Origin: a virus
Lineage: Duplodnaviria > Heunggongvirae > Uroviricota > Caudoviricetes
Length of the DNA: 64,000 nucleotides
Reading direction: 5' to 3' (one strand)
IMG/VR virus record: IMGVR_UViG_2938709436_000001
Location: 27,717 to 91,716 of that record
Part shown: positions 8,197 through 25,701 of the stretch, in pieces
Layout of the letters: each line of letters begins with the position of its first letter
Numbering within the stretch: the stretch's first letter is position 1
Program-made: the position numbers and the translations under genes
Notes under the pieces: generated by a model
Told to the model about the DNA's origin: nothing
Database searches by the model: none
What the model saw: only the letters and a program-made list of their open reading frames with translations

Positions 8197-8597
8197 CTCA
8201 ACCCCAGGCTCTCGTTGTAGATATCCACAAAGTCATTGTCCAGACCTTTCTTCTTCCCGTTATCGGAGTTCTGATAAGCGGCCTGTTTCTTGTCAAGCTC
8301 TGACTGCAACTTCGCATTCTTCGCCTTCTCTTCTTCAAGTTGTTTACTCAACTCATCAGAAGCTTTTTGCTGATTGTCTTTGTAGTCATGGTTAGCATTC
8401 TTGTTCTCTTGTTGTTTAGCGACCCACTTATCATCAGTATCCTTCACGCCACGATTATAAGATGCTGTAATCTGGTCGTTATACCAGTGCTTAGTGTAAA
8501 CTGCCCCGGACAACAGGGCAATGGCTAAGAATGCTGCAACTACCAGTTTGGTATTATTCCTGATAAAGGAAATCACCAGTTTAAATATGTCTGTCAT
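8193..8597 (-). CDS. Inner-membrane spanin subunit (Rz-like)
   Basis: N-terminal transmembrane helix (LVVAAFLAIALLSGAVY) followed by a charged coiled-coil region. Immediately followed by the lipoprotein gene. Confidence 0.6.
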   Translation of the reverse strand: MTDIFKLVISFIRNNTKLVVAAFLAIALLSGAVYTKHWYNDQITASYNRGVKDTDDKWVAKQQENKNANHDYKDNQQKASDELSKQLEEEKAKNAKLQSELDKKQAAYQNSDNGKKKGLDNDFVDIYNESLGLR

Positions 8598-10018: not shown

Positions 10019-10195
10019 GGTTTTCTCCTTTGGTTTAGTTAACCATTGGAGTGTACCAGAAAAAGAAAAGCCCCGCAAGAGCGGGGCGAGGCAAAGGAGA
10101 GGAGATTGAATATTTATTATTATTAGAATATGGTGGGGTGTTCCCTACTGAGGGACTCTTACGGTGCAGGACTGCTCCTGGATACCCCATTGTTT

Positions 10196-10277
10196 TGGAT
10201 GCGTGGATGGGAGTCGAACCCACAATTTTCGGCTTATGAGGCCAACGTGATCTATATATCCGTTTCACTAACACGCA
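10196..10277 (-). tRNA. tRNA with anticodon CAT (Met/Ile2-like), with an enlarged D-loop
   Basis: Minus-strand fold: acceptor TGCGTGT/CCACGCA, anticodon stem TTGGC/GCCGA, loop CTCATAA, T-arm GTGGG-TTCGACT-CCCAT, encoded CCA. Confidence 0.5.
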
Positions 10278-10283
10278 ATTATT

Positions 10284-10359
10284 TGGTGGGGCCGGGTGGA
10301 CTCGAACCACCGACCATCTGCTCTTCAGGCAGGCACTCTACCAACTGAGTTACAACCCC
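10284..10359 (-). tRNA. tRNA-Phe (GAA)
   Basis: Acceptor GGGGTTG/CGGCCCC, D-arm TAACTCAGTTGGTAGAGT, anticodon loop CTGAAGA, T-arm GGTGG-TTCGAGT-CCACC, CCA encoded. Confidence 0.8.
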
Positions 10360-10366
10360 ATAAGAT

Positions 10367-10440
10367 TGGTACTTCCTGGTAGAATCGAACTACCGCAACT
10401 GCCGTGTAAAGACAGGGTTCTACCATTAAACTAAGGAAGC
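10367..10440 (-). tRNA. tRNA-Val (TAC)
   Basis: Acceptor GCTTCCT/AGGAAGT, anticodon stem CTGTC/GGCAG, loop TTTACAC, T-arm GTAGTTCGATTCTAC. Confidence 0.7.
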
Positions 10441-10448
10441 ATTAGAAG

Positions 10449-10525
10449 TGGTGGGCGACAGGGGACTCGAACCCCCAAAATTCGGAATCTAAATCCGACA
10501 CGTATACCAATTCCATCAATCGCCC
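10449..10525 (-). tRNA. tRNA with anticodon TAG (Leu-type anticodon on a short-variable-arm body)
   Basis: Acceptor GGGCGAT/GTCGCCC, perfect anticodon stem TCGGA/TCCGA, loop TTTAGAT, T-arm GGGGG-TTCGAGT-CCCCT. Confidence 0.5.
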
Positions 10526-10560
10526 GTACGCTTGGGTCCGAAGAAATCCAAGCCTTAATT

Positions 10561-10639
10561 TGGTGGAGAATAAGAGATTCGAACTCTTCTGGTATCCTCG
10601 GTGCAAGCGAGGTGTCCACTCCAAGCAGACCCATTCCCC
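10561..10639 (-). tRNA. tRNA-Ala (TGC)
   Basis: Acceptor GGGGAAT/ATTCTCC, D-stem GTCT/GGAC, anticodon stem CCTCG/CGAGG, loop CTTGCAC, T-arm AAGAG-TTCGAAT-CTCTT. Confidence 0.65.
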
Positions 10640-10645
10640 ATATTT

Positions 10646-10722
10646 TGGTGCAGATACAGGGATTCGAACCCCGACCTTTCGCCTTCGTATGACGAAGCTC
10701 TATTCCATTAAGCTATATCCGC
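10646..10722 (-). tRNA. tRNA-Arg (ACG)
   Basis: Acceptor GCGGATA/TATCTGC, D-arm TAGCTTAATGGAATAGAGC, anticodon loop ATACGAA, T-arm CGGGG-TTCGAAT-CCCTG. Confidence 0.7.
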
Positions 10723-11126
10723 AAAATTCCTGCATGTACTTTTCTATGGCAATTGGCACACAGAACCACACACTTACGTATCTCTGCCTTAAATCTCTCA
10801 GAATTGAAAGATACCATTTCAGCAGGAGACATATCTTTTTGCTCAGGGTCTAAATGATGCAGATCCAATGCAACTGGTTCTTTCTCATTACACAATAAGC
10901 AACCTTTCATTCTTTTATACCTTCTCATAAGAAGGCGGTGGAATGTCCTGATTCTTTCTGACCTTTCATTGATAGCCATTTTCCTTTTTGGATTATTGGC
11001 GTATTGGTCATTATCAATCTTCTTTTTACATTCCTTGCAAAAACCTTGATAGCCGTCTTTCTTAGATTTGTTCTTGTAGAACATTTCAAAAGGCTTATCT
11101 TGTTTGCATCGAGGGCAGTGCTTCAT
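10713..11126 (-). CDS. HNH homing endonuclease
   Basis: C-terminal HNH motif LDLHHLDP...VVLCANCHRKVH and N-terminal CPRC zinc-ribbon. Embedded in the tRNA array. Its 3' end overlaps the 5' end of tRNA-Arg by about 10 nt. Confidence 0.8.
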   Translation of the reverse strand: MKHCPRCKQDKPFEMFYKNKSKKDGYQGFCKECKKKIDNDQYANNPKRKMAINERSERIRTFHRLLMRRYKRMKGCLLCNEKEPVALDLHHLDPEQKDMSPAEMVSFNSERFKAEIRKCVVLCANCHRKVHAGILRI

Positions 11127-11145
11127 TAACTTACCTCTTTAAAAT

Positions 11146-11223
11146 TGGTCGGAGCGGCAGGATTCGAACCTGCGACCCAGTGCATCCAAGGCACCCACGC
11201 TGACCAGACTGCGCTACGCTCCG
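11146..11223 (-). tRNA. tRNA-Pro (TGG)
   Basis: Acceptor CGGAGCG/CGCTCCG, D-stem GCGC/GCGT, anticodon stem GGTGC/GCACT, loop CTTGGAT, T-arm GCAGG-TTCGAAT-CCTGC. Confidence 0.8.
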
Positions 11224-11346
11224 AAGGTGCAGAATTTTAATTGTCCCAGACACTGCAACTGGTATTGCTGGCTAGCTAATTAAATGCAGAACTAGAGGTA
11301 TCAACATCCCGAAGGACTTTCCAGTGCTAGTACGACTCTGCAAATT

Positions 11347-11422
11347 TGGCGGAGATACCGGGCATCGAACCCGGAACATACCCGTGACAGGGGTGTATTT
11401 TATCCGTTTAAACTATATCTCC
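11347..11422 (-). tRNA. tRNA-Asp (GTC)
   Basis: Perfect acceptor GGAGATA/TATCTCC, anticodon loop CTGTCAC, T-arm CCGGG-TTCGATG-CCCGG. Confidence 0.7.
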
Positions 11423-11427
11423 AAATT

Positions 11428-11516
11428 TGGCGGTTCCTGAAGGATTCGAACCTTCGTCGGGGATTGCTCCCGGCAGGTTAACAGCCTGCTACCATCGGCC
11501 TCTCGGTCAAAGAACC
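11428..11516 (-). tRNA. Type II (long variable arm) tRNA with a Tyr-like body but anticodon loop CTGTTAA (GTT)
   Basis: Acceptor GGTTCTT/AGGAACC, anticodon stem GCAGG/CCTGC, loop CTGTTAA, 17-nt variable arm, T-arm GAAGGTTCGAATCCTTC identical to E. coli tRNA-Tyr. Confidence 0.6.
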
Positions 11517-11577
11517 ATGTAATTACTTTATCAGTGAAAACAACCTTTTGCAAGAATTATTTTAACTTATTTCAATT

Positions 11578-11680
11578 TGGCGGGATCTGAGGGTTTGCAC
11601 CTCACCTACGGTCCTGGATGCCCGTCATTCTGCTCCGCTGGTTGCCGTCGCATTTCCAGCCTCATTAAACTATCGTCCCG
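11578..11680 (-). other. Degenerate tRNA-like element (acceptor pairing poor)
   Basis: Ends with GATCCCGCCA and contains a D-loop-like TAGTTTAATG and a T-arm-like TGAGG-TGCAAAC-CCTCA. About 103 nt and not foldable into a canonical cloverleaf. Confidence 0.25.
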
Positions 11681-11685
11681 TTGTA

Positions 11686-11772
11686 TGGTGGGTCGGGTGG
11701 GATTCGAACCCAACGATCCCTCGATTAAAAGTCGAGTGCCTTAGACATACGTCGCCGCTTGGCTACCAACCC
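11686..11772 (-). tRNA. tRNA, probably Lys (TTT), with an expanded D region
   Basis: Acceptor GGGTTGG/CCGACCC, perfect anticodon stem CTCGA/TCGAG with loop CTTTTAA, T-arm TTGGG-TTCGAAT-CCCAC. It carries about 10 extra nt between the acceptor and anticodon arms. Confidence 0.45.
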
Positions 11773-11777
11773 ATATT

Positions 11778-11866
11778 TGGAGGAGAGCAACAGAATCGAA
11801 CTGTCACCGTATCGCTACGATGGGACCGGGTTCAAACCGGAGTCTGCACCATGCAGCCTGCTCTCC
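11778..11866 (-). tRNA. tRNA-Ser (TGA), type II
   Basis: Perfect acceptor GGAGAGC/GCTCTCC, anticodon region CCGG-TTTGAAC-CCGG, long variable arm, T-arm GACAG-TTCGATT-CTGTT. Confidence 0.65.
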
Positions 11867-11868
11867 GG

Positions 11869-11959
11869 AGGAAGATGTCAGACTTGAACTGACACACCCC
11901 TTTTCAGGGGCTACTGTCTCTTTAGCAAAGAGATCCCTTACCGTTAGGGTTAATCTTCC
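11869..11959 (-). tRNA. tRNA-Ser (GCT), type II; 3' CCA not encoded
   Basis: Perfect acceptor GGAAGAT/ATCTTCC, anticodon stem TCTCT/AGAGA, loop TTGCTAA, long variable arm, T-arm GTCAG-TTCAAGT-CTGAC. It is followed by TCCG instead of CCA. Confidence 0.65.
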
Positions 11960-12105
11960 AATTGTTCTTTAATTTCTTTGCGAAGATCTGCTTTCTCTTT
12001 CGCACGAGTTATAGGGATTGATTGGATCTCGTCTGCAACACCACAGTTACTACCATGAATCTTGCAACGACCAAACACCTTCTTACAACGCAAAAGTTTT
12101 TGCAT
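11950..12105 (-). CDS. Small Cys-rich hypothetical protein (51 aa)
   Basis: MQKLLRCKKVFGRCKIHGSNCGV... with a strong RBS (GAGGAGATGAT then ATG). Its last ~10 nt overlap the 5' end of tRNA-Ser(GCT). Confidence 0.4.
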   Translation of the reverse strand: MQKLLRCKKVFGRCKIHGSNCGVADEIQSIPITRAKEKADLRKEIKEQLED

Positions 12106-12120
12106 ATCATCTCCTCAAAG

Positions 12121-12212
12121 TGGCGGTGGAAGTAGGATTCGAACCTACGGACCCCTGTGAAGGGGCCGACACCTTTCCAAGGTGCTGTCTTTAACCGCTC
12201 GACCATTCCACC
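12121..12212 (-). tRNA. tRNA-Ser (GGA), type II
   Basis: Perfect acceptor GGTGGAA/TTCCACC, anticodon stem GCACC/GGTGT, loop TTGGAAA, long variable arm, T-arm GTAGG-TTCGAAT-CCTAC. Confidence 0.7.
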
Positions 12213-12296
12213 AATTCGCGGCAGATACGTACAAAAGTTATCCTGGACTAGAACCCATGAAACATGGGGGAAGTTAGAGGTTAACTCGTATCTGCA
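12213..12296 (-). other. tRNA-like structured element (9-bp terminal inverted repeat, D-arm-like stem, no canonical T-arm)
   Basis: GCAGATACG...CGTATCTGC terminal pairing, a D-stem-like AGTT/AACT, and an internal hairpin CCCCCATG-TTTC-ATGGG. Confidence 0.2.
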
Positions 12297-12299
12297 AAT

Positions 12300-12376
12300 T
12301 GGGGTGGCTAGTCGGACTCGAACCGACATAGAACTGCCTCACATGCAGTGTCATTATCCAGTTATGATATAGCCAC
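12300..12376 (-). tRNA. tRNA-His (GTG)
   Basis: Perfect acceptor GTGGCTA/TAGCCAC, D-stem TCAT/ATGA, perfect anticodon stem ACTGC/GCAGT, loop ATGTGAG, T-arm GTCGG-TTCGAGT-CCGAC. Confidence 0.8.
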
Positions 12377-12447
12377 ACATGAGTGTTCTCCTGTTGAAGC
12401 CATCACAGCATAGCTGATCCATCATTCAACCCAAAAACACTCAAATT

Positions 12448-12523
12448 TGGCAGGAAGATAAGGACTCGAACCCTAACTCCGGAGATCAAAGCCCCGTGTG
12501 CTAACCAATTACACCATCCTCCT
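12448..12523 (-). tRNA. tRNA-Gln (TTG)
   Basis: Acceptor AGGAGGA/TCTTCCT, anticodon stem CGGGG/CTCCG, loop CTTTGAT, T-arm TAGGG-TTCGAGT-CCTTA. Confidence 0.65.
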
Positions 12524-12532
12524 AAAAATCAC

Positions 12533-12655
12533 TTAGCTCTGCAACAGAATGAAGCGCCACGAGTCGAACGTGGTAACCGCTCACTTCAAACCCCATTCGC
12601 GTTTGCAACCACTACTTAGAGGTATCAGGCCCGATTTACCTGCTACAGAGCTAAA
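12533..12655 (-). other. tRNA-like remnant: T-arm/acceptor minihelix nested in a 15-bp outer stem
   Basis: Outer inverted repeat TTAGCTCTG.AGCAG/CTG.TGCAGAGCTAA. Inside it, TGAAGTG-AGCGGTTA-CCACG-TTCGACT-CGTGG-CGCTTCA forms an acceptor plus T-arm hairpin. No D or anticodon arms. Confidence 0.25.
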
Positions 12656-12660
12656 TAATT

Positions 12661-12737
12661 TGGCAGGGACCCTGGGATTCGAACCCAGAACCTGCGGATT
12701 TGGAATCCGCTGCACTAGCCAATTGTGCTAAGTCCCT
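12661..12737 (-). tRNA. tRNA-Trp (CCA)
   Basis: Acceptor AGGGACT/GGTCCCT, D-stem GCAC/GTGC, perfect anticodon stem GCGGA/TCCGC, loop TTCCAAA, T-arm CTGGG-TTCGAAT-CCCAG. Confidence 0.8.
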
Positions 12738-12744
12738 ACAAATT

Positions 12745-12819
12745 TGGTACTCCTACCGAGAATCGAACTCGGATTTCCAGATTGAAAGTCTGGCGGCCTG
12801 ACCGTTAGCCGATAGGAGC
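12745..12819 (-). tRNA. tRNA-Glu (TTC)
   Basis: Acceptor GCTCCTA/TAGGAGT, perfect anticodon stem CCAGA/TCTGG, loop CTTTCAA, T-arm CCGAG-TTCGATT-CTCGG. Confidence 0.8.
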
Positions 12820-12825
12820 ATTAAT

Positions 12826-12901
12826 TGGAGCGTTATATCGGATTCGAACCGATGTCACCGACTTGGAAGGACGGGATGCTGGACCACTGCACTAATAACG
12901 C
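12826..12901 (-). tRNA. tRNA-Gly (TCC)
   Basis: Acceptor GCGTTAT/ATAACGC, D-stem GTGC/GCAT, anticodon loop CTTCCAA with one stem mismatch, T-arm ATCGG-TTCGAAT-CCGAT. Confidence 0.65.
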
Positions 12902-12907
12902 TTTGTT

Positions 12908-12982
12908 TGGTGGGAGTAGCTGGGCTTGAACCAGCGACCTAACGGTTATCGACCGTTTGCTCTACCACTGAGCTATACTCCC
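12908..12982 (-). tRNA. tRNA-Ile (GAT)
   Basis: Perfect acceptor GGGAGTA/TACTCCC, D-arm TAGCTCAGTGGTAGAGC, anticodon stem AACGG/CCGTT, loop TCGATAA, T-arm GCTGG-TTCAAGC-CCAGC. Confidence 0.7.
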
Positions 12983-12988
12983 GTTAAT

Positions 12989-13076
12989 TGGTGGGGCGAG
13001 TAGGACTCGAACCTACGAAGGACGCGATGCCAAGGGATTTACAATCCCGCCCGTTTGCCGCTCCGGGAACCGCCCC
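12989..13076 (-). tRNA. tRNA-Tyr (GTA), type II
   Basis: Acceptor GGGGCGG/TCGCCCC, anticodon GGGA-TTGTAAA-TCCC, long variable arm, T-arm GTAGG-TTCGAGT-CCTAC. Confidence 0.75.
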
Positions 13077-13078
13077 AA

Positions 13079-13444
13079 TTAACCTTGTTTGAACTGTACG
13101 ATGTCAGTTGAGAAAGGTTTTGCTACTGGTTTATCAGCGCCCTTTCCGGAACCATCATCGACGTTCTTTGTTTCTTCTTCATTTTCGTTCTCTTCATCGA
13201 AGTAATCAGAAAGCATTTGCTTACCTTCCTCAATAACGAAACGAGCAATATTCTCACGGATGTTGTCTTTAGTATCCTTGTTCATCATAAGATCACGAAG
13301 GACCATATGTGCATCAGGGATCATAGCAATCATCTTTGTTTTCAGATCAAGAATGTTCTTCTCAAGCTGAATTGCGTTAGACTCCTCTTTTAAAGGACGA
13401 CCCTTACCTCTACGACGCTTGGTAAGTGCTTGTTTTGTTGCCAT
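13079..13444 (-). CDS. Hypothetical protein with an N-terminal basic AT-hook-like segment (RRRGKGRP) and an acidic C-terminus
   Basis: Start chosen at the ATG (MATKQALTK...) rather than the upstream GTG of the track ORF (13079..13456). It sits between the tRNA sub-clusters. Confidence 0.5.
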   Translation of the reverse strand: MATKQALTKRRRGKGRPLKEESNAIQLEKNILDLKTKMIAMIPDAHMVLRDLMMNKDTKDNIRENIARFVIEEGKQMLSDYFDEENENEEETKNVDDGSGKGADKPVAKPFSTDIVQFKQG

Positions 13445-13530
13445 AATTAACCCCACTTATTAATGTTATCAGAGTTCAATATCTCTGTCAAGGGTTATTT
13501 TATCATTTATAGCAAAAAATATCAACAACT

Positions 13531-13604
13531 TGGAGCACGGTAGGTGAATCGAACACCTGACATTCGGTTTGCAGCCGAAGCTGTTGCCACTCCAGCAACC
13601 GCGC
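13531..13604 (-). tRNA. tRNA-Cys (GCA)
   Basis: Acceptor GCGCGGT/ACCGTGC, D-stem GCTG/CAGC, perfect anticodon stem TTCGG/CCGAA, loop CTGCAAA, T-arm AGGTG-TTCGATT-CACCT. Confidence 0.8.
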
Positions 13605-13609
13605 ATAAG

Positions 13610-13684
13610 TGGTCGAGGTAGTAGGATTCGAACCTACGTAAAGGAGTTTAGAAGACTCCTGCCTATCCTCTAGACTATACCCCG
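13610..13684 (-). tRNA. tRNA-Arg (TCT)
   Basis: Acceptor CGGGGTA/TACCTCG, perfect anticodon stem GGAGT/ACTCC, loop CTTCTAA, T-arm GTAGG-TTCGAAT-CCTAC. Confidence 0.8.
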
Positions 13685-13687
13685 TTC

Positions 13688-13765
13688 TGGTGCGCCCTCC
13701 CGGACTCGAACCGGGAACCCTGGGAGCTTAACACCCATGCCTCTACCAGATTGGACCAAGAGCGC
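13688..13765 (-). tRNA. tRNA of undetermined identity (atypical anticodon arm; loop region TGTTAAGCT)
   Basis: Acceptor GCGCTCT/AGGGCGC and T-arm CCCGG-TTCGAGT-CCGGG are canonical. The anticodon arm folds only as a 4-bp stem TGGG/CCCA with an apparently 9-nt loop. Confidence 0.5.
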
Positions 13766-13956
13766 AAACATATTTTAAGCTGCATGGTGACTCCACCGAC
13801 CTCTGTTCTCCGCGAACAGCGCTCTACGACCTTAGAACTTCTGTTACAACAACGTGGCCTTTGTCGTTGAAACTCCATTCAGTTAGGCTCATTCTCCTCA
13901 CAGATGATCAGTCCGTGAATCAAATAATCTGAGCTAATGCACTTTAAAATATGTTT

Positions 13957-14065
13957 TGGAGCAGGGTGGTGGAATCTAACCACCTATGTATTCACTCTCC
14001 ACTCCAAGCCGAGAGCTATTTTCAGGTCTGGATGGACCTCGCGGTTGACAAACCGCCTACCCTGC
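13957..14065 (-). other. Unusually long (about 109 nt) tRNA-like gene
   Basis: Perfect 7-bp acceptor GCAGGGT/ACCCTGC, D-stem GCGG/CCGC, T-arm GGTGG-TTAGATT-CCACC. It has a roughly 40-nt extra arm and an ambiguous anticodon loop. Confidence 0.3.
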
Positions 14066-14067
14066 AT

Positions 14068-14141
14068 TGGCTCGCTGAAGTGGATTCGAACCACTGAACC
14101 CCTTGCGCAGAGGGGGCCTTTACCGCTAAGGCTATCAACGA
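14068..14141 (-). tRNA. tRNA with anticodon loop CTGCGCA (GCG?, Arg-like), identity uncertain
   Basis: Acceptor TCGTTGA/TCAGCGA, D-stem GCC/GGC, perfect anticodon stem CCCCT/AGGGG, T-arm AGTGG-TTCGAAT-CCACT. Confidence 0.5.
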
Positions 14142-14147
14142 ATTGTT

Positions 14148-14222
14148 TGGTGCTCCCAGTAGGAATCGAACCCACTTCCTCGGCTTACAAGGCCGCTGCA
14201 TCGCCACTTATGCTTTAGGAGC
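14148..14222 (-). tRNA. tRNA-Thr (TGT)
   Basis: Acceptor GCTCCTA/TGGGAGC, D-stem GCAT/ATGC, anticodon CGGC-CTTGTAA-GCCG, T-arm GTGGG-TTCGATT-CCTAC. Confidence 0.7.
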
Positions 14223-14609
14223 AAGAATGCTGTTTCCGATTAACTGCCCGGAGGTGTGGTTAGCCATATCTTGTGAGCTAAGGACCTTTGACCCAGGATT
14301 TTAATAATCAACGAAATTTTAGCTTTGTGGTTTAGAAGTTTCAAGTTTAAACATTAAGCTTTGAACTTTAATCTTTGAATGTTGAACTTTGAAGTCTTTC
14401 GAATTCGCGATTCGATAATTTCGGCAGAGTTGTGGTCTGCGGAAACATACGTTAAGTATCATCCTATATGATTAAGTTCGAGGCAGTTTAACCTCCGGCC
14501 TCGGTAGAGGCAAGATGTTTCCAACTTCGCTAACCAAAAACAGCATTTTGAAACTTTATCAGTTAACGAGAGGAATTACAAGATGTTTTTCATAATTCAT
14601 CAAGTTATT
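14223..14609. repeat. AT-rich non-coding region with tandem CTTTGAA/GAACTTT-type short repeats (candidate ori or regulatory region)
   Basis: No ORF on either strand. Degenerate direct and inverted repeats: gaagtttcaagttt, aagctttgaacttt, aatctttgaatgtt, gaactttgaagtctttcgaattcgcgattcg. Confidence 0.5.
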
Positions 14610-15257
14610 TTAGATTGATCCCTCAATCTCTACTTCAGTCCGTGCGTTGGACTCGGACAACACAAAGTCAACGTTGGATTTGAAGTCTTCGATCTCTGTT
14701 TCCAGATTTCGGATTACGTCTGCCAGACCCAGTGGGTCAACGATAGACGGTGTGCTCATCAGACGGGTCGGACCTTCTACCGTCTTAATCTGCTCTGGAT
14801 CAGGCGCTTTGTCACGACTGATGTACGGAGCACGGGCCTGTTCCAGCTTGGTTTCGAAGTCAGCGACTTCTTTATCAAGGCGCTTCTGAGCGAAGTTGTA
14901 CTGCGCTTTCAGCTTGGACAGGAGCAGTTCTTTGTAAGCAACTGTGCGCTTGCCTTCAATTGCCTGAGCAACTGTCATCTCTTTACCACCAACGGTGACC
15001 AGAGTTACTGCGTTGGACTGAACAACTTTCGCCTTCAGTTCATCACGTACTGCCAGCAGGTCTTTCAGGCCTTGGAAGTCTGCCTTAGCAGAAGTCTCGA
15101 AGTCAGCAATGCTAACCAGAGAACCTGGGATCGAACGGTGATCTTCCGTCCCTTTTGCGATCTGAACAGTGTTCAACTGGTCGATACGCTTTTCGATCTT
15201 GCCCTCGATCTTGGTCAGAGTTGCCAGAGCGCGGGTTACAGAAATCTTAGTAGACAT
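14610..15257 (-). CDS. Hypothetical coiled-coil protein
   Basis: 215 aa, K/E-rich heptad-like sequence. RBS-like GAGGAGA precedes the ATG. Confidence 0.55.
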   Translation of the reverse strand: MSTKISVTRALATLTKIEGKIEKRIDQLNTVQIAKGTEDHRSIPGSLVSIADFETSAKADFQGLKDLLAVRDELKAKVVQSNAVTLVTVGGKEMTVAQAIEGKRTVAYKELLLSKLKAQYNFAQKRLDKEVADFETKLEQARAPYISRDKAPDPEQIKTVEGPTRLMSTPSIVDPLGLADVIRNLETEIEDFKSNVDFVLSESNARTEVEIEGSI

Positions 15258-15334
15258 ATAATTCTCCTCTCAATGAACTTTAAATTTTAAATGTACTTCA
15301 AATGTTTGCCGACATCCGTGTCGGCACGGCGGTA

Positions 15335-15946
15335 TTAGTTTTTACCAGTGTTAACTACAACACCTTGGCGGTTCGCATCAGCTTTAGCGATTTCCAGACG
15401 GGTTTCGCGTTCTGCTTTCAGGTCTGCACGGGCAGCTTCAAGCTGTTCGGTCAGCATTGCGATACGATCTTTATCTGCCTTGGTATTGGCGTTCAGTTCG
15501 GCAATCGCAACTTTGTGGGCTGATTCCAGATTGGATTTAACAGCGTTCAGTTCGATAGCGGCAGAACGTTTTGCAGCATCGACGGCAGCGGTGATCGCAT
15601 CTTCGTTACTATCCATCGCGACAGACAATTCGTGACGCAGACCATCAACAACACCCGGTTCGATAGCTACAAGACCACGAGCCTTCAGCAGGGCGTTCAG
15701 TACGCCGTCTTCGTTTTCAAGAACCTTGATCTTCAGCTTAGATTTTTCTTCAGCCAGCTTTTCGTTGAACTGGGCTTCGATATTGCCAAGCTCCTGCTGT
15801 TTGAACTGAATTTCCTGACTGATGCGCTCAGAACCTTCAGCCAGAGATTGCAGGTCAGCAACGACCTTACTCAGGCCAGTAGCAGCAGTTGCAACAGCTT
15901 TGGTAGCGCGTTCAGTTACAGAAATTACAGTTTTAGAATCAGACAT
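15335..15946 (-). CDS. Hypothetical coiled-coil protein
   Basis: Start at MSDSKTVISV... preceded by AAGGAG. Ala/Glu/Lys-rich. Confidence 0.55.
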   Translation of the reverse strand: MSDSKTVISVTERATKAVATAATGLSKVVADLQSLAEGSERISQEIQFKQQELGNIEAQFNEKLAEEKSKLKIKVLENEDGVLNALLKARGLVAIEPGVVDGLRHELSVAMDSNEDAITAAVDAAKRSAAIELNAVKSNLESAHKVAIAELNANTKADKDRIAMLTEQLEAARADLKAERETRLEIAKADANRQGVVVNTGKN

Positions 15947-15974
15947 TAAGTTCTCCTTTGCGTAAAATTGAGTT

Positions 15975-16005
15975 GTGATACTACACTTTAAAAATTTCAT
16001 TGTCA
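15975..16005 (-). promoter_or_regulatory. Sigma70-like promoter (minus strand) upstream of the 15335..15946 gene
   Basis: Reverse strand reads TTGACA-atgaaatttttaaagtg-TAGTAT. Confidence 0.45.
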
Positions 16006-16159
16006 AGAAGTTTTTTTGAAACAAGAGCACTTTCGTCCATTTAAGCTATCGCCCTGTGCCATTACGCGAGCCGGGCCAGCAAGAACGGGAGTCGAACCCG
16101 TATCTCTCTCATTCCAAAAAATGGTGGGGCATGAAGGATTCGAACCTTCGACCTTCGGC

Positions 16160-16504
16160 TTAATCGTAATGAACTTCCCTGTGGCAGTTTGCACAAAGTA
16201 GTACACACTTGTCAAGCTCTTTCCTAATTTTATCCCAAGATGCAGTTTGGTACTTACCACCCAAGTGGAAATCTTTTTGCGTAGGATCTAAGTGATGGAA
16301 CTCAAGAGCACCTATGCACTTATCATAACCACAAGAAGAACACTTACCACCCTTATAGTCAACAGCCATTTTCTTAAGGGCCTTTCTCCGTGATGTTACA
16401 GAATCAACAGAGCAAGCTCTGCAACGATAACGACCATCAGCCCTTAATACATAAACCGTATCTCCGTGATACTTACAATTAGAAATTTTCGTTGTTGCCA
16501 TCAT
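16160..16504 (-). CDS. HNH homing endonuclease (paralogue of 10713..11126)
   Basis: LEFHHLDPTQKD...CVLLCANCHREVH plus a Cys-rich N-terminus. Adjacent to orphan tRNA 3' fragments. Confidence 0.8.
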   Translation of the reverse strand: MMATTKISNCKYHGDTVYVLRADGRYRCRACSVDSVTSRRKALKKMAVDYKGGKCSSCGYDKCIGALEFHHLDPTQKDFHLGGKYQTASWDKIRKELDKCVLLCANCHREVHYD

Positions 16505-16720
16505 ACCCTCAGTAAATTCGGTCCGTGTTTTTCAAGACGTTGCACGGAATCGTCACGGTTGCCGCAGCCCTTTATTTTAAGACGCATCGCCGCAGCCAGC
16601 TTCGTCTATCCCCATGCCGGAGGAATTAATTACCGAACTGGGGCGACTGTTTACTACGACCCTGCCGACAATTTTCGACAGCGCCATTTCAACACAAACC
16701 ATCAGTTCAGTAAAGCTTTA

Positions 16721-17050
16721 TTACTTCTTCTTACCTTTCGGCGCTACGGCTTCAACAACCTTAGCGTCTTTAGCTTTACCAGCGCGTTCACGCTTGGTCT
16801 TGCCAGTGCGAACACGGTGTGAGGCAGAAATTACCTGACCACCTTCAACGCGGGAAACGGATTCCCAGATGAATACAACGTTGCCGTCTTCATCACGACG
16901 CTTTTTACGAATGGAAACGGTCTTGGTTACACCGCCCAGACGAACATCGTGTGGTGCAGAGTGAGTCTGCGTTGACTTCGACTCAAACTGGAAAGGCTGT
17001 TTGATTGCGTCGATTGCAGAAACTTTCTTAGTTGCGTTTTTCTTAGCCAT
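16721..17050 (-). CDS. Hypothetical highly basic (Lys-rich) protein
   Basis: 109 aa with K-rich N- and C-termini. Strong RBS GAGGAGAAATACAAC before the ATG. Confidence 0.5.
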   Translation of the reverse strand: MAKKNATKKVSAIDAIKQPFQFESKSTQTHSAPHDVRLGGVTKTVSIRKKRRDEDGNVVFIWESVSRVEGGQVISASHRVRTGKTKRERAGKAKDAKVVEAVAPKGKKK

Positions 17051-17119
17051 GTTGTATTTCTCCTCTATTTGCTAATGTCTTGTTGACGTTGGTAATACTA
17101 ATCTTTCGTACTTCCTTTG

Positions 17120-17287
17120 TCAATCGTTTTTTGAATCTTTTTTCGTTTCTTTATGAAGACCGAGTGAAACATCGTAACGGTCGTACACAGAATTACTATT
17201 CCCTACAGATGAGTCCATTCTGGAATCCCAGTTTGAAGACATGCTTTTGGGCTTACCAATTCCGAAAAAATCATAAATCTTATTCAT
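17120..17287 (-). CDS. Small hypothetical protein (55 aa)
   Basis: MNKIYDFFRIGKPK... with RBS AAGGAGAGACC immediately upstream. It is absent from the ORF track because of its size. Confidence 0.4.
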   Translation of the reverse strand: MNKIYDFFGIGKPKSMSSNWDSRMDSSVGNSNSVYDRYDVSLGLHKETKKDSKND

Positions 17288-17301
17288 GGTCTCTCCTTGT
17301 T

Positions 17302-17378
17302 TGGTAGTTCTGGCAGGGATTGAACCTGCGACCTCTTCCTTATGAGGGAAGCGCTCTAACCAACTAAGCTACAGAACC
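17302..17378 (-). tRNA. tRNA-Met (CAT)
   Basis: Acceptor GGTTCTG/CAGAACT, D-arm TAGCTTAGTTGGTTAGAGC, perfect anticodon stem CTTCC/GGAAG, loop CTCATAA, T-arm GCAGG-TTCAATC-CCTGC. Confidence 0.8.
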
Positions 17379-18867: not shown

Positions 18868-18897
18868 CTCAAATAAGAACCCGACCAAGAGGTCGGG
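18868..18897 (-). terminator. Rho-independent terminator downstream of the NAMPT-like gene
   Basis: cccgacc-tcttg-ggtcggg hairpin followed by a T-rich run on the minus strand. Confidence 0.55.
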
Positions 18898-18905
18898 TTT
18901 GTATC

Positions 18906-20591
18906 TTACAGTTGAGCGGCTGCTCGTTCACGAATCGTTGTCAGATCTTCATCGACAATCAACTTGCCGTTGTAGAACACACGACGCAGTTCGTTATCTC
19001 CAGACTGTACCTCTTCCAGTTGGCAATTGTCAATCAGTTCTAACTGACCAAACATATTGCGAACAACTTTCAGGAAACCTTTTGCAGATTTCTTACCGAG
19101 GTCTGTCTTAGGCTCTTTGACAACCATGATTTGCTGACCATCGATCACAGCACCAGTTGCTTTCACAGCCATACCCAGTGAATCACGGGTTGTGTACTGG
19201 GTGGTGAAGGAACCAACACCAAACACGATATTGCTGGATGCAAAACCTTTATCTTTCAGGCGTTCAAAGATGTCTTTTGCACGAGCAACGGTAATTGAGT
19301 CACCGTAGATCAGTCCAACATGCGAATCAAGAACCTTGTAACCTTTGGAGTTAATCTCACCACCAAAGATTTCCCACAGACACTGAATTGCCCCCTTAAC
19401 TTCGTGGTCTTCCAGTCCTGAAGGTTGGAAGTCGAAGAAAGCATTATCTTCATCGTCTACAAGAATTCGGTAGTATTTGCCCTCAATCTTAGCGACTTCT
19501 GAATTCGAGTCTTCCTGCAACGCAGTATGTGCGTCTGACCAGTCATCGAATTCGCCAAGGCTACGGTAACCAGCAATGATGTGCTCTGGAATACCTGAGT
19601 CAGGACGGAATACAACACGACCGTCACGAGCCATGATATCTTCTTTCAGAATCAGCGCTGCACGAGTGATAATCGCCCAGAAGTCATAACTATCTGCTAC
19701 GTAGGAAACAAAACCTTTCGGGAAAATTTCCGTGATGTAGCGTTTCAAGAATTCAACTTCAGCCAGGAAACGCAGATCATCAAGAGACAGATCAGGATGT
19801 TCTGTTTTCAGGCGACCAACGATGAAGCCGATGTTGGTTGTTGCCACACTGTGTTCTGATGCTGGGATTGACCCGGCAACGAACTTACCTTTCATGTTGT
19901 AATAACGGCGAGCATACAGAATCGCAGGGATAGTGTCTGTACCCATTGAGTTGATCAGTTGACCGAACTCGCTCTGTGCTGCATCGTGAGTACCTGATTC
20001 ACCGCGATATGCGAAGCAGTGATTCTGGAATGGAACGTGAAGATTGTTATCACAAGTTTCAGCGGCCCATGCTTCAGACAGTTTACGATACTGCCAGAAG
20101 GTAGTTGCAGTTGTGATAGTTTTCCAGGTTTCTGCTGAAATCACGCTTTCCAGGAAATTCGGTAACCAGTAAAAATCAGGGTGCGTGTTCTGGATTGTGA
20201 ACATCGGGACCTGAACAGGGGACAGTGTTCCCTCTGGAAGAGCACGAATTTCAAGAGGAAGATAGCCAAGATCATGAAGCGCCTCAAAGCCCCATGTTTC
20301 AACCATACCTATGCCGATACTTGAATCGCAAACCTCACGATAATCAGCAACAGCCTCTTCTTTCGGAAGATTGAAGAAGTTATTGTTGAACATATCGATC
20401 AGGAACCACTTAATAAAACCTTGGATGCCTGCGAACATGACACGCTTGTCATTATCAGCAAAGTGAATGAAATGCTTCGCGTTACGCGGAGTCATGTTGT
20501 CCTGAACAATTTCAGAACGTTTATCATACATGGAGATGTGTGAAGGTTTGTAAAAGTCTGCAAACAGGATAGGACTTTCTTGATTAAGCAT
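18906..20591 (-). CDS. Nicotinamide phosphoribosyltransferase-like protein (NAMPT/NadV family; possibly the Namat component of a NARP1-type NAD-reconstitution pathway)
   Basis: N-terminal ILFADFYKPSH resembles the NAMPT LLATDSYKVTH signature. 561 aa. It is encoded two genes away from a Prs homologue, the pairing described for phage NAD reconstitution pathway 1. Confidence 0.7.
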   Translation of the reverse strand: MLNQESPILFADFYKPSHISMYDKRSEIVQDNMTPRNAKHFIHFADNDKRVMFAGIQGFIKWFLIDMFNNNFFNLPKEEAVADYREVCDSSIGIGMVETWGFEALHDLGYLPLEIRALPEGTLSPVQVPMFTIQNTHPDFYWLPNFLESVISAETWKTITTATTFWQYRKLSEAWAAETCDNNLHVPFQNHCFAYRGESGTHDAAQSEFGQLINSMGTDTIPAILYARRYYNMKGKFVAGSIPASEHSVATTNIGFIVGRLKTEHPDLSLDDLRFLAEVEFLKRYITEIFPKGFVSYVADSYDFWAIITRAALILKEDIMARDGRVVFRPDSGIPEHIIAGYRSLGEFDDWSDAHTALQEDSNSEVAKIEGKYYRILVDDEDNAFFDFQPSGLEDHEVKGAIQCLWEIFGGEINSKGYKVLDSHVGLIYGDSITVARAKDIFERLKDKGFASSNIVFGVGSFTTQYTTRDSLGMAVKATGAVIDGQQIMVVKEPKTDLGKKSAKGFLKVVRNMFGQLELIDNCQLEEVQSGDNELRRVFYNGKLIVDEDLTTIRERAAAQL

Positions 20592-20644
20592 GTTTTGTTT
20601 CTCCTTTGTGTGTTTTGATGGGGTGATTCTACACCCCGTTTGTT

Positions 20645-21178
20645 TTAGATGTCAAGTGAAAAATCTAAAGATTTCGATTCTGTTTTCACAGTTGTCGTTT
20701 CTTTAACCAATCTGCAACCTTTTACCTTGATTTCTTTGGCTGGTGACCACTTGGTCGCACGAATATAGAAAGTGTTAGCACGGATGACCATGAAACGTAC
20801 CACATCTTCAGGTGGTTCTTCACGGATGTAGATAGCTACACTTTCGTATGCAGGCCACTTGAAGGGATTATTTGCCGTAACATCAGAATGCACACCACCA
20901 CCGTTGTTTGTGCGCCCCGGAGTTGGGTAAATCGCACATGGGCGATAGCAGGCGTGTTCATCTGGAACCTGGAGAACATTATTTTCTAACCATCCACAGA
21001 TTTTTTCGAGATCAAAATCGTAATGGTCTTCTTTCAGGTCTTCAATATCGGTGCGGTACTCTGCACCAACACCACATTCACCAATCTGCCCGGTGATATG
21101 AGCGCACATGTCACGCTCAAAATTACCAGCATAGGAATCTGTATCGACAACAAAAATAAAACTTGTTGATTCAGTCAT
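20645..21178 (-). CDS. Hypothetical protein between the NAMPT-like and Prs-like genes
   Basis: 177 aa ORF, no recognisable motif. Confidence 0.5.
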   Translation of the reverse strand: MTESTSFIFVVDTDSYAGNFERDMCAHITGQIGECGVGAEYRTDIEDLKEDHYDFDLEKICGWLENNVLQVPDEHACYRPCAIYPTPGRTNNGGGVHSDVTANNPFKWPAYESVAIYIREEPPEDVVRFMVIRANTFYIRATKWSPAKEIKVKGCRLVKETTTVKTESKSLDFSLDI

Positions 21179-21990
21179 TAAAAATTCTCCGTCCAGTCAT
21201 GATACGCATAGATTTCATCAACCCCACCATCGAGGATGACCTGTTTACCGAAAGAAAAGATACCGTGAGTAACGTACAGAATAACACGTTTTGCACCATT
21301 TTCTTTCAGGGCTTGTGCAAGAGCGATGAATGTACGACCCCCGTCGCAGATATCATCAACAATCATACACACTTTACCTTCTACATCTCCGAACACCGCA
21401 GTACCAGTGATTTCGTTGGTCTGCAAATCACGTACTTTACCAGCCTCAACAAGAGGAAGACTGAATCGGTCAGCAACCTTATGGGCTTTCTTGCGAGCAC
21501 CCGCATCAGGTGCTACCACAACCAAAGAGTTGCTATGCAATGTGGAGTTGCCAAGATCTTTCATCTCGGAAATAAGAACATCCTGACCACGGATACGGAC
21601 GTTATTGAGCAGTGCAGCAGAGACATCGCTGTGCGGGTCATCAACGATAACCGTGTCAAAGCCGAGTGAGTTTACGATGTTTGCGAAAACCTTAATGGAT
21701 AACGCTTCACCAGGGTTCATTACACGATCTTGTCGTGCATACGGGATGTATGGAAGGTGCAGGGTGAACTCTGCGTGGTTATGCAATCCTTCCAGACGGG
21801 AACACGCATCAACCAACATAGCCAGTGCCATGACATCAGTTGAATTTTTGATTTTGGCAGTGATATCTACGAAACCGATACCGCCTTTCGGTGCGTGTTT
21901 TAGGTCAATTTTTACCTGTTCCTCACCACCCTTAAAAGTGAAGTGGTCTACAGGAACAACCAGTTTGTTCAAACGTAATTCAATACTCAT
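21178..21990 (-). CDS. prs: Ribose-phosphate pyrophosphokinase (PRPP synthetase) homologue, or ADP-ribose pyrophosphokinase of a NARP1-type pathway
   Basis: Phosphoribosyltransferase PRPP-binding motif CMIVDDICDGGRTF and overall Prs-like organisation. 270 aa. Confidence 0.7.
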   Translation of the reverse strand: MSIELRLNKLVVPVDHFTFKGGEEQVKIDLKHAPKGGIGFVDITAKIKNSTDVMALAMLVDACSRLEGLHNHAEFTLHLPYIPYARQDRVMNPGEALSIKVFANIVNSLGFDTVIVDDPHSDVSAALLNNVRIRGQDVLISEMKDLGNSTLHSNSLVVVAPDAGARKKAHKVADRFSLPLVEAGKVRDLQTNEITGTAVFGDVEGKVCMIVDDICDGGRTFIALAQALKENGAKRVILYVTHGIFSFGKQVILDGGVDEIYAYHDWTENF

Positions 21991-21991
21991 T

Positions 21992-22309
21992 TTATTTCTC
22001 CTCTGTCCAATTGTGAATTTCGTAAATCGTTTTGTTGTGGCCCATATTGGTGCGTGTTGTGTCCTTTGTCAACCACTTTATCTTTTCAAGGTTGCTCACA
22101 CACCTGGCAACGGTTGCCCTCGATAATCCTGTGGCATCAGCAATACTATCAAGCGACTCATGATACGTTTTCCTGAGAGACTTGAAGTAATGATACTGAT
22201 GTCGCATGTAGAGATACACAATCTTGTCGTTGGACGAGGCGCAGGTCACCGACAGCAACTTCAGTTCGAAGTTACCGTAGATGTGCTTACCTGACGCGAT
22301 GTACCCCAT
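21992..22309 (-). CDS. Winged-helix/HTH transcriptional regulator
   Basis: HTH-like segment SLDSIADATGLSRATVARCVSNLEKIKWL. It borders a divergent promoter region containing direct repeats. Confidence 0.5.
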   Translation of the reverse strand: MGYIASGKHIYGNFELKLLSVTCASSNDKIVYLYMRHQYHYFKSLRKTYHESLDSIADATGLSRATVARCVSNLEKIKWLTKDTTRTNMGHNKTIYEIHNWTEEK

Positions 22310-22325
22310 GTCTCTCCTCCATAGC

Positions 22326-22365
22326 CTATACTCAAATTGATACTAAGCCTAGTCTCAAATTGATA
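22326..22365. promoter_or_regulatory. Direct repeats (candidate operator sites) in the divergent intergenic region
   Basis: ctcaaattgata occurs twice, 23 nt apart, adjacent to the HTH regulator gene. AGATCT palindromes follow. Confidence 0.4.
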
Positions 22366-22534
22366 ACAGAAATAAATACTATATAAAATAAATAAAACAA
22401 TACTCTTTTATAAAAACAATAAAACATAAGATCTAAAAACAAGATCTTTTAGTATGATCTATATATTCTACTATCAAAGAGTCGTTCACTTGATGAACCG
22501 CAGTATGAATGAACAGGAATGTGCTGTCAAGGGG

Positions 22535-23579: not shown

Positions 23580-23679
23580 AAATTTTCAAGATTGTTTCAA
23601 TGGACAAAAGTCATGAAGATTACTACTGCTATGACTGCGAAAGCTGGGGATTTTTCTGCAAATGTTAAAGGAAAATAAA

Positions 23680-24273
23680 ATGATCGACCACGTTACGTCA
23701 GATACCCACTGGTGGCACACCAATATCCTTGGTTTCCCATCGTGCGATAAGTTCCGTAAGAACCTGTATGGCCCGAAAGAAGACTCAGCCTCCGTTGTCA
23801 AAATGAACGATGACATGGTTAAGACGTGGAACAAACACGTCAAGCCTGACGATGTGGTGGCACACCTGGGTGATTTCGTTATTGCCTATGGTAAGCACGT
23901 TGAGCCAAAGGTTCGTGATATTTTGAGCCGTATCAATGGGAAGATCATTCTGGTTGGTGGTAATCATGACAACCATCAGACAAAGCGTATCTTCCGTGAG
24001 TTTGGTCATGAAGTCGTGGACTATAAGGAAATTGAGTTCAGCACCGGGAAAGAAAAGGTGAAGGTGTGTATGTCCCACTATCCGTTTGCATCATGGAATA
24101 AGGCACATCACGGGTCGGTAATGCTGCACGGTCACAGCCACGGCTCCTATACGGCCCCTGGTGGGCGTATTTTGGATGTGGGTTGGGATGTGCATGGTCG
24201 TCCTTTAACGATGTGTGAAGCTGTTCTGATGTGCCTTGCTAAACCAATTTACACTGCTGATCATGGAGAATAA
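23680..24273 (+). CDS. Calcineurin-like metallophosphoesterase
   Basis: Motifs DTHWWH, HLGDF and GGNHD match the DxH / GD / GNHD phosphoesterase signature. AAAGGAA RBS. Confidence 0.65.
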   Translation: MIDHVTSDTHWWHTNILGFPSCDKFRKNLYGPKEDSASVVKMNDDMVKTWNKHVKPDDVVAHLGDFVIAYGKHVEPKVRDILSRINGKIILVGGNHDNHQTKRIFREFGHEVVDYKEIEFSTGKEKVKVCMSHYPFASWNKAHHGSVMLHGHSHGSYTAPGGRILDVGWDVHGRPLTMCEAVLMCLAKPIYTADHGE

Positions 24274-24631: not shown

Positions 24632-24812
24632 TCAGTTGGGTAATGTCGCATTTTTAATCTCAGAGCTTGAAGATTACGTTGACATGCTGGACCTGAGCAT
24701 TTATGATGATTACCAAGAAATGAAACTAGCACAAAAAGAAGTGCTTAAAATACTGAAAAGTCTCAGATTGAGGAGAGAAAATGAAATTCAACGTAGACGA
24801 TCTGGTCGCTAA
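24615..24812 (+). CDS. Hypothetical protein
   Basis: 65 aa ORF, overlapping arrangement typical of phage operons. Confidence 0.4.
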   Translation: MKKDLDQLGNVAFLISELEDYVDMLDLSIYDDYQEMKLAQKEVLKILKSLRLRRENEIQRRRSGR

Positions 24813-25701
24813 AAAACTGGTAACCAAAAAGACTTATACCGAAGGCCCGTTCGCGGGTCTTTCCGTTCTGAAATATAAGAACAATGTGTTCTGGGACAAC
24901 CTGTGGCACACAGACGCACGTCTTCTTGAGTGTCGTGGCATGGTTGTTGATGCAGAGGACAACGTTGTTATCTGGCCTTTCACGAAGATTTTCAACCGCT
25001 TCGAGAATAACACCGATGTTCCACAAGATCAGTTAGTGTGTGTTCCACGTAAAGTTAATGGCTTTATGGCAGCGATGAGCGTTTACAAAGGCGAGGTGAT
25101 TGTATCTACAACTGGAACACTTGATTCTGAATTTGCACAAATGGCAAAAGACAAGATCACCGCTGCAATGCCTGACGGAATGCTGGATTATTTCGTGAAA
25201 AATGCTGGTCCATGCACACTTATCTTCGAAATCTGCGATGATAGTGACCCACACATTGTTGGAGAAGAAGCTGGGGCTTACCTGATCGGTTGTCGTGTCC
25301 ACTTGAGTGGTGGTATGCTCCCAGAATGGGACCTTGATAGGGTTGCAGATCGATATGGCTGGAAACGTGCTGGCTGGGACAATATGCTCTTCAGCGATGT
25401 TGTTAAGGCCTCTCAGTCGGTTAATCATGAAGGGTTTGTTGTGCGTGATGTTGATACCAATGAGTTGTTGCTTAAAATCAAGTCACCACATTACCTGGCG
25501 AAGAAGTTCCTGATGCGTGGTAGCCAGAACAAGTGGGACATGATCTGGGACAACCCTAAAGAAGCTAAGAAGCGTATCGACGAAGAGTTCTACGAACTCC
25601 TTGATTGGCTTCGCTGGGCTTACGAAAAAGAAGAGTGGGCGGCTAAGGACTCTCAGTATCGCCGTATGATTATTGAAAAATACTTCGAGGATCGTAAATG
25701 A
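24781..25701 (+). CDS. ATP-dependent RNA-ligase-like nucleotidyltransferase (Rnl2-like motif set)
   Basis: Motif I KVNGF (KxNG), motif IV EGFVVR and motif V LKIKS in the correct order. No OB domain. It is distinct from the larger DNA ligase downstream. GAGGAGAGAAA RBS. Confidence 0.6.
   Translation: MKFNVDDLVAKKLVTKKTYTEGPFAGLSVLKYKNNVFWDNLWHTDARLLECRGMVVDAEDNVVIWPFTKIFNRFENNTDVPQDQLVCVPRKVNGFMAAMSVYKGEVIVSTTGTLDSEFAQMAKDKITAAMPDGMLDYFVKNAGPCTLIFEICDDSDPHIVGEEAGAYLIGCRVHLSGGMLPEWDLDRVADRYGWKRAGWDNMLFSDVVKASQSVNHEGFVVRDVDTNELLLKIKSPHYLAKKFLMRGSQNKWDMIWDNPKEAKKRIDEEFYELLDWLRWAYEKEEWAAKDSQYRRMIIEKYFEDRK

Follow-up and report, generated by a model that had tools for sequence, protein, structure and literature searches.

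A conserved third gene between adps and namat in a predicted NARP1 operon of a Seunavirus-like phage

We examined a 64,000-nucleotide stretch of a viral genome (IMG/VR record IMGVR_UViG_2938709436_000001, positions 27,717 to 91,716; hereafter the window), which is that of a Vequintavirinae/Seunavirus-like myovirus. Three of its minus-strand open reading frames (ORFs), of 561, 177 and 270 aa, very probably belong to a NAD+ reconstitution pathway 1 (NARP1) operon, a judgment on the chemistry that we base on homology and diagnostic motifs. The 270-aa and 561-aa proteins are the predicted ADP-ribose pyrophosphokinase (Adps) and the predicted nicotinamide ADP-ribose transferase (Namat) of that pathway, and the 177-aa protein encoded between them is here called X. 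The pair of enzymes is already known. The only new element is X – an undescribed, conserved, operon-embedded third gene – and we present it as an experimental lead and do not count it as a discovery.

Two enzymes of the NARP1 type

The systems that served to define NARP1 are genes 79-80 of phage Bas63 and those of SpbetaL1 and Fado, and the chemistry of the pathway was shown experimentally with these homologues: Adps pyrophosphorylates ADP-ribose (ADPR) to ADPR pyrophosphate (ADPR-PP), and Namat joins ADPR-PP and nicotinamide to give NAD+ (Osterman et al., bioRxiv 10.1101/2024.02.11.579819). In the window, Adps would convert ATP and ADPR to ADPR-PP and AMP, and Namat would convert ADPR-PP and nicotinamide to NAD+ and pyrophosphate. 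The rebuilt NAD+ would let the phage replicate despite the NAD+-cleaving defenses SIR2-HerA, DSR, Thoeris and SEFIR.

The original prediction had read the pair as NARP1 from the sequence and had proposed a clade comparison with housekeeping Prs and Nampt. We reproduced all three ORFs at the predicted sizes, strand and coordinates (Table 1), and when both proteins were compared for similarity and for the motifs published as discriminating, they fell with the validated Adps and Namat and not with the housekeeping enzymes. The Pfam matches are NAPRTase (E 9.5e-28) for the 561-aa protein and, for the 270-aa one, Pribosyltran, Pribosyl_synth and Pribosyltran_N.

The 270-aa protein is 43% identical to the validated Adps of Bas63, a Felixounavirus (E 2e-53, 163 bits), as against E 1e-24 and about 90 bits for E. 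coli Prs (4s2u). It carries the motifs DPHS (118-121), GKVRD (184-188, including K185), DDICDGGRTF (212-221), APDAG (160-164) and ARQDR (85-89), the E. coli Prs equivalents of the first three being DLHA, DKRRP and DDMIDTGGT. The remodelled PP loop of the donor site (D212-D213-I214-C215-D216...F221), Lys185 of the catalytic hairpin and the conserved acceptor residues are all present, and the PP loop DDICDGGRTF is identical to that of Bas63. By these signatures the protein is an Adps.

Its sequence is also 100% identical to MZ311864_00097 of Escherichia phage vB_EcoM_LNA4 (LNA4), for which Supplementary Table 1 of Osterman et al. gives the entry "Namat within 10 genes: Yes". The Namat of the same phage, MZ311864_00099, is given in their Table 2 as "Adps-associated", not Nmnat-associated, and phages GAP31, 4MG and PVP-SE1 are likewise in the NARP1 tables with the neighborhood marked "Yes". 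Because the identical LNA4 Adps is already listed, the pair is not new; both the phage group and the exact Adps protein are already catalogued. In the window, adps and namat lie on the same strand with one gene between them, well within ten genes. No NMNAT partner was found at the locus, the search being confined to it.

The 561-aa protein is 42% identical to the validated Bas63 Namat (E 1e-133). It matches PDB entries 9w5x and 9w5w at E 1e-125, as against about 1e-47 for true Nampt structures; we take these two entries to be SpbetaL1 Namat because their numbering matches the residues named in PMC12774641. At residues 460-470 the window protein has the SCH motif GSFTTQYTTRD, with F at position 3 and Y at position 7, the equivalents being GSFTYQYNTRD in SpbetaL1, GSYTYQYMTRD in Bas63 and GGGLLQKVNRD in a Nampt-type protein from a locus of our survey described below (L034; L-numbers are our labels for individual loci). 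A HMMER alignment to 9w5x, together with motif positions, indicated that the nicotinamide-binding and catalytic residues D13', Y15', F189, R192, D215, A242 and R306 of SpbetaL1 are conserved in the window as D12, Y14, F193, R196, D219, A244 and R329. A stacking residue in Namat is supplied by the SCL loop (beta1-beta2), which is variable in both sequence and length. We conclude from similarity and motifs that the NAMPT-like protein is a Namat.

The original prediction had also drawn attention to this protein as about 70 aa longer than canonical enzymes. The difference in length holds (561 aa against 491 aa for 9w5x), but its unusualness does not. Two insertions, one near residues 254-280 and the other near 342-394, make up the extra ~70 aa, and shorter Nampt-type proteins lack both. 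Because both insertions also occur in the Namat of Bas63, which is 593 aa long and has a longer version of the second one, and in related phages, X-less ones included, we rejected the greater length as a special feature.

That the locus encodes instead a conventional Prs and Nampt pair making phosphoribosyl pyrophosphate (PRPP) and nicotinamide mononucleotide (NMN), as the names in Pfam, NCBIfam and GenBank would have it, is highly improbable: the Prs-specific DLHA and DDMIDTGGT are replaced by Adps-type motifs and the Nampt-type GGGLLQ loop by the Namat SCH motif, the two proteins share 42-43% identity with validated NARP1 enzymes, and the Bas63 homologues have been demonstrated not to act via NMN. 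Signatures of housekeeping Prs and Nampt or of NARP2 (DDM-x-DTGGT, DLHA and a GGGLLQ-type loop) are absent from the window enzymes.

We note two entries that take in parts of both enzymes. In PHROG 12872, which spans 547 positions, the first 222 match Adps and positions 254-539 match Namat, and FJ373894_00125 of Shigella phage Ag3 (Table S1 of Osterman et al.) reads as an Adps N-terminus running into a Namat C-terminus. Either there are natural Adps-Namat fusions or the Ag3 entry reflects a frameshift or annotation artifact.

Conservation and family of gene X

The stop codon of adps and the start codon of X overlap by one base (TTT TAATG ACT). Such a stop/start overlap is a usual sign of translational coupling, and X is predicted to be coupled to, and co-expressed with, adps. 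We found no description of X in the literature searched. Compared with phages 4MG and EspYZU15, its ratio of nonsynonymous to synonymous substitution rates (dN/dS) is 0.066-0.078, and those of the flanking enzymes are 0.056-0.072 (Adps) and 0.07-0.11 (Namat). This purifying selection (dN/dS ~0.07) indicates that X is a real, constrained gene. The order Adps-X-Namat and the one-base overlap are also kept in two metagenomic lineages in which X is 58% and Namat 52-55% identical, from which we infer that the arrangement is old. The absence of X from PVP-SE1-like and Klebsiella phages is a presence/absence polymorphism.

Neither Pfam nor NCBIfam returned any match for the X of the window, and a Pfam search of 60 family members (E<=5) gave no consistent family. 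The original prediction had treated the intervening gene as unusual. Two precedents exist for such an insertion in NARP1: Adpp, a Macro-domain phosphatase of ADPR-1''-phosphate (Poa1p-like) that is present in 15% of NARP1 operons and gives the order Adps-Adpp-Namat in the NARP1-AP of Vibrio phage Gary (bioRxiv 10.64898/2026.01.28.702374), and RyDEP, an RyR-domain glycosidase that opens 2'/3' cyclic ADP-ribose (cADPR) and is encoded by gp78 within the NARP1 operon of mycobacteriophage DyoEdafos (bioRxiv 10.64898/2026.05.28.727677). An insertion as such is therefore not unusual; what stands is that X belongs to neither family. We rejected X as an Adpp or Macro domain because hhalign gave the X family profile and Gary Adpp a probability of 0.2%; the Macro model was not among the families reported in the Pfam search of the 60 members, and GAP31, LNA4 and 4MG are not in the table of Macro-associated NARP1 loci. 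The RyR identity was rejected on the Pfam model and on the fold: PF02026 was not among the 25/26 families reported for the same 60 members, and the X model is alpha/beta. The R12 repeat is all-helical.

The AF2 model of X (pLDDT 95) has a mixed alpha/beta fold with a ferredoxin-like core, and a search for structural relatives of this model found none. When PDB sequences were searched with the X profile, the only matches were to artificial alphaRep proteins, and we regard these as spurious.

An exhaustive profile search gathered 1,752 family representatives (clustered at 50% identity), of which 1,463 reached E<=1e-10; nearly all representatives are stand-alone proteins of 150-250 aa. The few fusions are uninformative; the N-terminus of P0084 matches no family, and P0022 carries DUF6575. 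A loop-helix motif, DTDxYAGNFER, is near-invariant (D12, T13, Y16, G18, N19, F20, E21 and R22), as are T29, G30, G33, C35, D73, R79, P80, R133 and R156. This mix of acidic, aromatic and arginine residues suggests a site for a nucleotide or phosphate ligand. Among sequenced phages, X is confined to a single sub-lineage of Seunavirus, to Bacillus phage G and Salmonella phage 21, and to one uncultured jumbo phage; in IMG/VR it is found mainly on contigs of 100-500 kb. A pattern scan of 185,579 species genomes placed it on only 12 contigs of metagenome-assembled genomes (MAGs), none an isolate genome, and one of the 12 is also in IMG/VR, as a jumbo-phage contig.

Genomic context and possible roles of X

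To survey the context of X, we clustered all ORFs within 10 kb of it in 70 lineages (70% X identity) and annotated the recurrent families. The most frequent neighbor was a calcineurin-like metallophosphoesterase (16 of the 70 lineages), sometimes fused to a DrHyd/NDT-like domain, as in phage G and L035. DUF4326 was a neighbor in 9 lineages, ATP-dependent DNA ligase in 8, RNA ligases in 7 and ThyA in 6; Prs/Adps, Nampt/Namat, Macro, NUDIX, YqeY and Thg1 were present in 5 each, and DHFR in 4. In phage G, the protein encoded two genes away from the X homologue (AEO93593.1) was assigned by Iyer et al. 2022 to the DrHyd type, as a predicted ADP-ribosyl cyclase; they also proposed that DUF4326 strips terminal phosphates from ADP-ribose (ADPr) derivatives. 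The window has a calcineurin-like metallophosphoesterase ORF of its own, included in the count of 16 (23662-24273, plus strand), 2.4 kb from X on the divergent strand. Because it adjoins a T4 Rnl1-type RNA ligase (24781-25701, plus strand), it may instead belong to an RNA-repair module.

As one example of an NAD/ADPr neighborhood, we point to L072 (IMGVR_UViG_3300033984_000473, 7758-16391), an island on a single strand of a 233-kb phage contig with the order Nampt, a 201-aa unknown, X (with a one-base overlap), NADAR (E 3e-51), a DrHyd-like protein and Macro, and further on SIR2 and then Prs. In L063, X stands within a same-strand array of Adps, an unknown, Adpp, a second unknown and Namat. 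The L034 neighborhood holds Macro, Nampt, RNA ligase and X, and in L005 a canonical Prs has X directly upstream, and close by are a PARP-domain protein and an NAD-dependent ligase. When the salvage enzymes were typed by motif, L005 and L072 proved to have true Prs-type proteins and L034 a Nampt-type protein, the Nampt homologue of L072 being without the SCH motif; L063, L014 and L018 were of the Adps/Namat type. Because the neighbors thus include both types, X by this typing accompanies both kinds of NAD+ salvage.

An NAD/ADPr-network gene was present within 10 kb of X in 29 of the 70 lineages and within 3 kb in 16. Prs-/Nampt-type genes were found in 6 lineages (about 5 independent events), in every case within 3 kb of X; by our internal control on distance from X, uniform placement would put about 30% there. 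Separately, in one metagenomic lineage (L012 3337-5876, L016 1064-3597, L004 1-729) X is divergently paired with a 249-aa protein and with one of about 596 aa that has a central NUDIX domain and large unannotated flanks.

We tentatively propose that X assists NARP1, either as an accessory enzyme or as a sponge. It would bind or convert a small molecule derived from NAD+ or ADP-ribose, in support of NARP1, on a substrate other than those of Adpp and RyDEP. For the broader proposition that X has any role in NAD/ADPr metabolism or counter-defense, we consider the chances about even. The proposal draws on Adpp and RyDEP, which occupy the same slot and feed ADPR to NARP1; on the overlap with adps, the slot kept over divergence and a dN/dS equal to that of the flanking enzymes; and on the invariant loop-helix motif together with the independent NAD/ADPr contexts of L072, L063, L005 and phage G and the counts, given above, of lineages with NAD/ADPr-network and Prs-/Nampt-type neighbors.

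Several observations weigh against this proposal. In 41 of the 70 lineages there is no NAD/ADPr gene within 10 kb of X (from limited seeds), and none of the 12 MAG loci shows one either. ThyA, DHFR, ligases, Thg1 and YqeY also recur beside it. With NadV-like genes in about 33% of jumbo phages, and with ADPr-processing genes generally located in early regions alongside RNA-repair and host-takeover genes, the association may in part be generic early-region clustering. Close relatives carry adps and namat adjacent to each other and without X, so X seems non-essential to the pathway, and because X co-occurs with Adpp it does not replace that enzyme.

The main rival explanation, to which we give somewhat less than an even chance, is that X is an unrelated early gene that only happens to lie in the NARP1 operon of this phage lineage, serving for example nucleotide metabolism, RNA repair or another host-takeover function, and that the operon is a plain two-enzyme NARP1. 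It would account for the lineages with no detectable NAD/ADPr neighbor and for the related phages with adjacent adps and namat, and it suits a family that is very large and mostly on jumbo-phage contigs, and whose members have ThyA, DHFR, DNA ligases, RNA ligases, Thg1 and YqeY as neighbors roughly as frequently as NARP genes. It is harder to reconcile with the adps overlap and a slot retained over deep divergence, with the placement of the Prs-/Nampt-type gene within 3 kb of X in six of six lineages, and with the L072 array, which consists almost wholly of NAD/ADPr domains.

Two narrower explanations seem to us improbable. The first makes X a non-enzymatic sponge for an ADPR-derived immune signal (a Thoeris cADPR isomer or His-ADPR), as would befit a small, stand-alone protein that is widespread in phages and has conserved Arg and aromatic residues; RyDEP-family members do act as sponges in other phages. 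The fold of X, however, is unlike known sponge folds, and its conserved acidic D12, E21 and D73 fit catalysis equally well. The second, also of low probability, is that X handles labile 1-pyrophosphoryl-ribose intermediates, either protecting or channeling ADPR-PP and PRPP or recycling ADPR-cyclic phosphate (ADPR-cP) and phosphoribosyl cyclic phosphate (PRcP). ADPR-PP decays to ADPR-cP, as PRPP does to PRcP, and this chemistry is common to the Adps- and Prs-type, Namat- and Nampt-type enzymes beside which X is found alike. X is moreover putatively coupled in translation to the enzyme that makes ADPR-PP, and Adps and Namat alone form no stable complex according to PMC12774641. The case is a chemical argument only, however; X has no motif of the known cyclic phosphodiesterases, and phages without X apparently cope.

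Twice in 2026 a gene inserted in NARP1 proved to be a new counter-defense enzyme, Adpp against aRES and RyDEP against Thoeris signals. Each channels a different immune product into ADPR, and X is a third, unrelated family in the slot. It is possible, though doubtful, that, beside Adpp with its Macro domain and RyDEP with its RyR domain, X represents a third and structurally new class of NARP1-associated factor, one that extends NARP1 to further defenses and is widely used by jumbo phages in their NAD/ADP-ribose arrays. As an enzyme or binder, X would then act on an NAD+-derived molecule that neither Adpp nor RyDEP handles, such as ADPR-cP, His-ADPR or another cADPR isomer. If X does act on an NAD or ADPR derivative, it would add another layer to the NAD+ arms race and possibly point to an unknown defense product. 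Genetics of X is feasible, since phage 4MG grows on E. coli K-12 MG1655.

Organization of the locus and comparison with known systems

The locus region is 95% identical to LNA4 and 94% identical to Cronobacter phage GAP31, and its features are collected in Table 1. Because X overlaps adps, the winged helix-turn-helix (wHTH) ORF ends one base before the adps start, and a hairpin follows namat, the transcription unit is likely wHTH-adps-X-namat.

Table 1. Features of the predicted NARP1 locus (window coordinates).
Feature	Position	Strand	Basis
105-aa winged-helix (wHTH) protein	21992..22309	-	ORF; Pfam HTH_IclR E 1.6e-5; PHROG 8102
adps, predicted ADP-ribose pyrophosphokinase (Prs-like), NARP1 enzyme 1 (270 aa)	21178..21990	-	similarity and motifs
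X, 177 aa, phrog_23621	20645..21178	-	TAATG overlap; no Pfam/NCBIfam match
promoter-like site TTGACA-18-TAGAAT	20617..20655	-	consensus-like; putative function
namat, predicted nicotinamide ADP-ribose transferase (Nampt-like), NARP1 enzyme 2 (561 aa)	18906..20591	-	similarity and motifs
terminator-like hairpin	18878..18899	-	consensus match only

The wHTH gene is probably the first of the unit. Its product has a sub-threshold match to PF24409, "wHTH-PRTase associated" (22.3 bits, against a cut-off of 27), and in relatives it is 96-100% identical, with a dN/dS of 0.04-0.06. RefSeq calls the protein "replication initiation protein", apparently via a partial match to PHROG 8102. X-less relatives have a different, longer HTH protein upstream of adps, similar over only about 50 aa.

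The 53-bp spacer between X and namat contains a hairpin, the promoter-like site and an AAGGAG ribosome-binding site; the -10 hexamer lies in the loop of the GC-rich hairpin and the -35 hexamer inside the last codons of X. X-less relatives have the same promoter-in-hairpin before namat, in an adps-namat gap of 61-67 bp. The conserved pattern – TTGACA, 17-18 nt, a -10-like TAGAAT, TACAAT or AAGAAT in the hairpin loop, AGGAGA and ATG – recurs at L088 3290-3356, L089 3824-3884 and L014 1873-1929, and may be a regulated internal promoter for namat. X thus lies exactly between the adps stop and the conserved putative namat promoter. Seven nucleotides past the namat stop is the second hairpin, AACCCGACCTCTTGGTCGGGTT then CTTATTTG, a probable end of the unit.

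The locus is mosaic when compared with GAP31 (L001): Adps is 99.6% and X 98.3% identical, and Namat only 86.2%. The divergence of Namat is concentrated in its second insertion, where the window nearly matches the X-less phage GEC_vB_MG (L088). The drop in identity at Namat and this near match imply a recombination breakpoint near the X/namat junction.

Downstream of the operon and on the same strand, 24 tRNA genes are clustered at 10284-17378, with an HNH endonuclease ORF (16160-16504) between the main cluster and the last tRNA (tRNA-Met). The GC skew changes sign at about 22000-22500, being negative below about 22 kb and positive above, and the switch falls at the divergent promoter region that separates the minus-strand NARP1 unit from the plus-strand genes.

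Among known systems, NARP2 (Nampt with NMNAT/Nudix, phage KVP40) and classical Prs-NadV salvage use enzymes of the same superfamilies, and some distant X homologues (L072, L034, L005) lie next to such classical enzymes, but those of the window bear the signatures of Adps and Namat and not those of Prs and Nampt. The NARP1 of Bas63 is closer, sharing with the window the order Adps then Namat on one strand, the diagnostic motifs and both Namat insertions; its two genes are adjacent, however, whereas the window has the 177-aa gene between them, overlapping the adps stop. The NARP1-AP of Gary likewise has three genes in this order, the extra one lying between adps and namat; its middle gene widens the substrate range by converting ADPR-1''P to ADPR. 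RyDEP differs in having the RyR Repeat12 domain (PF02026), which no X family member matches, but like X it is a NARP1-inserted gene that is present or absent among close relatives, and its product, ADPR, feeds NARP1.

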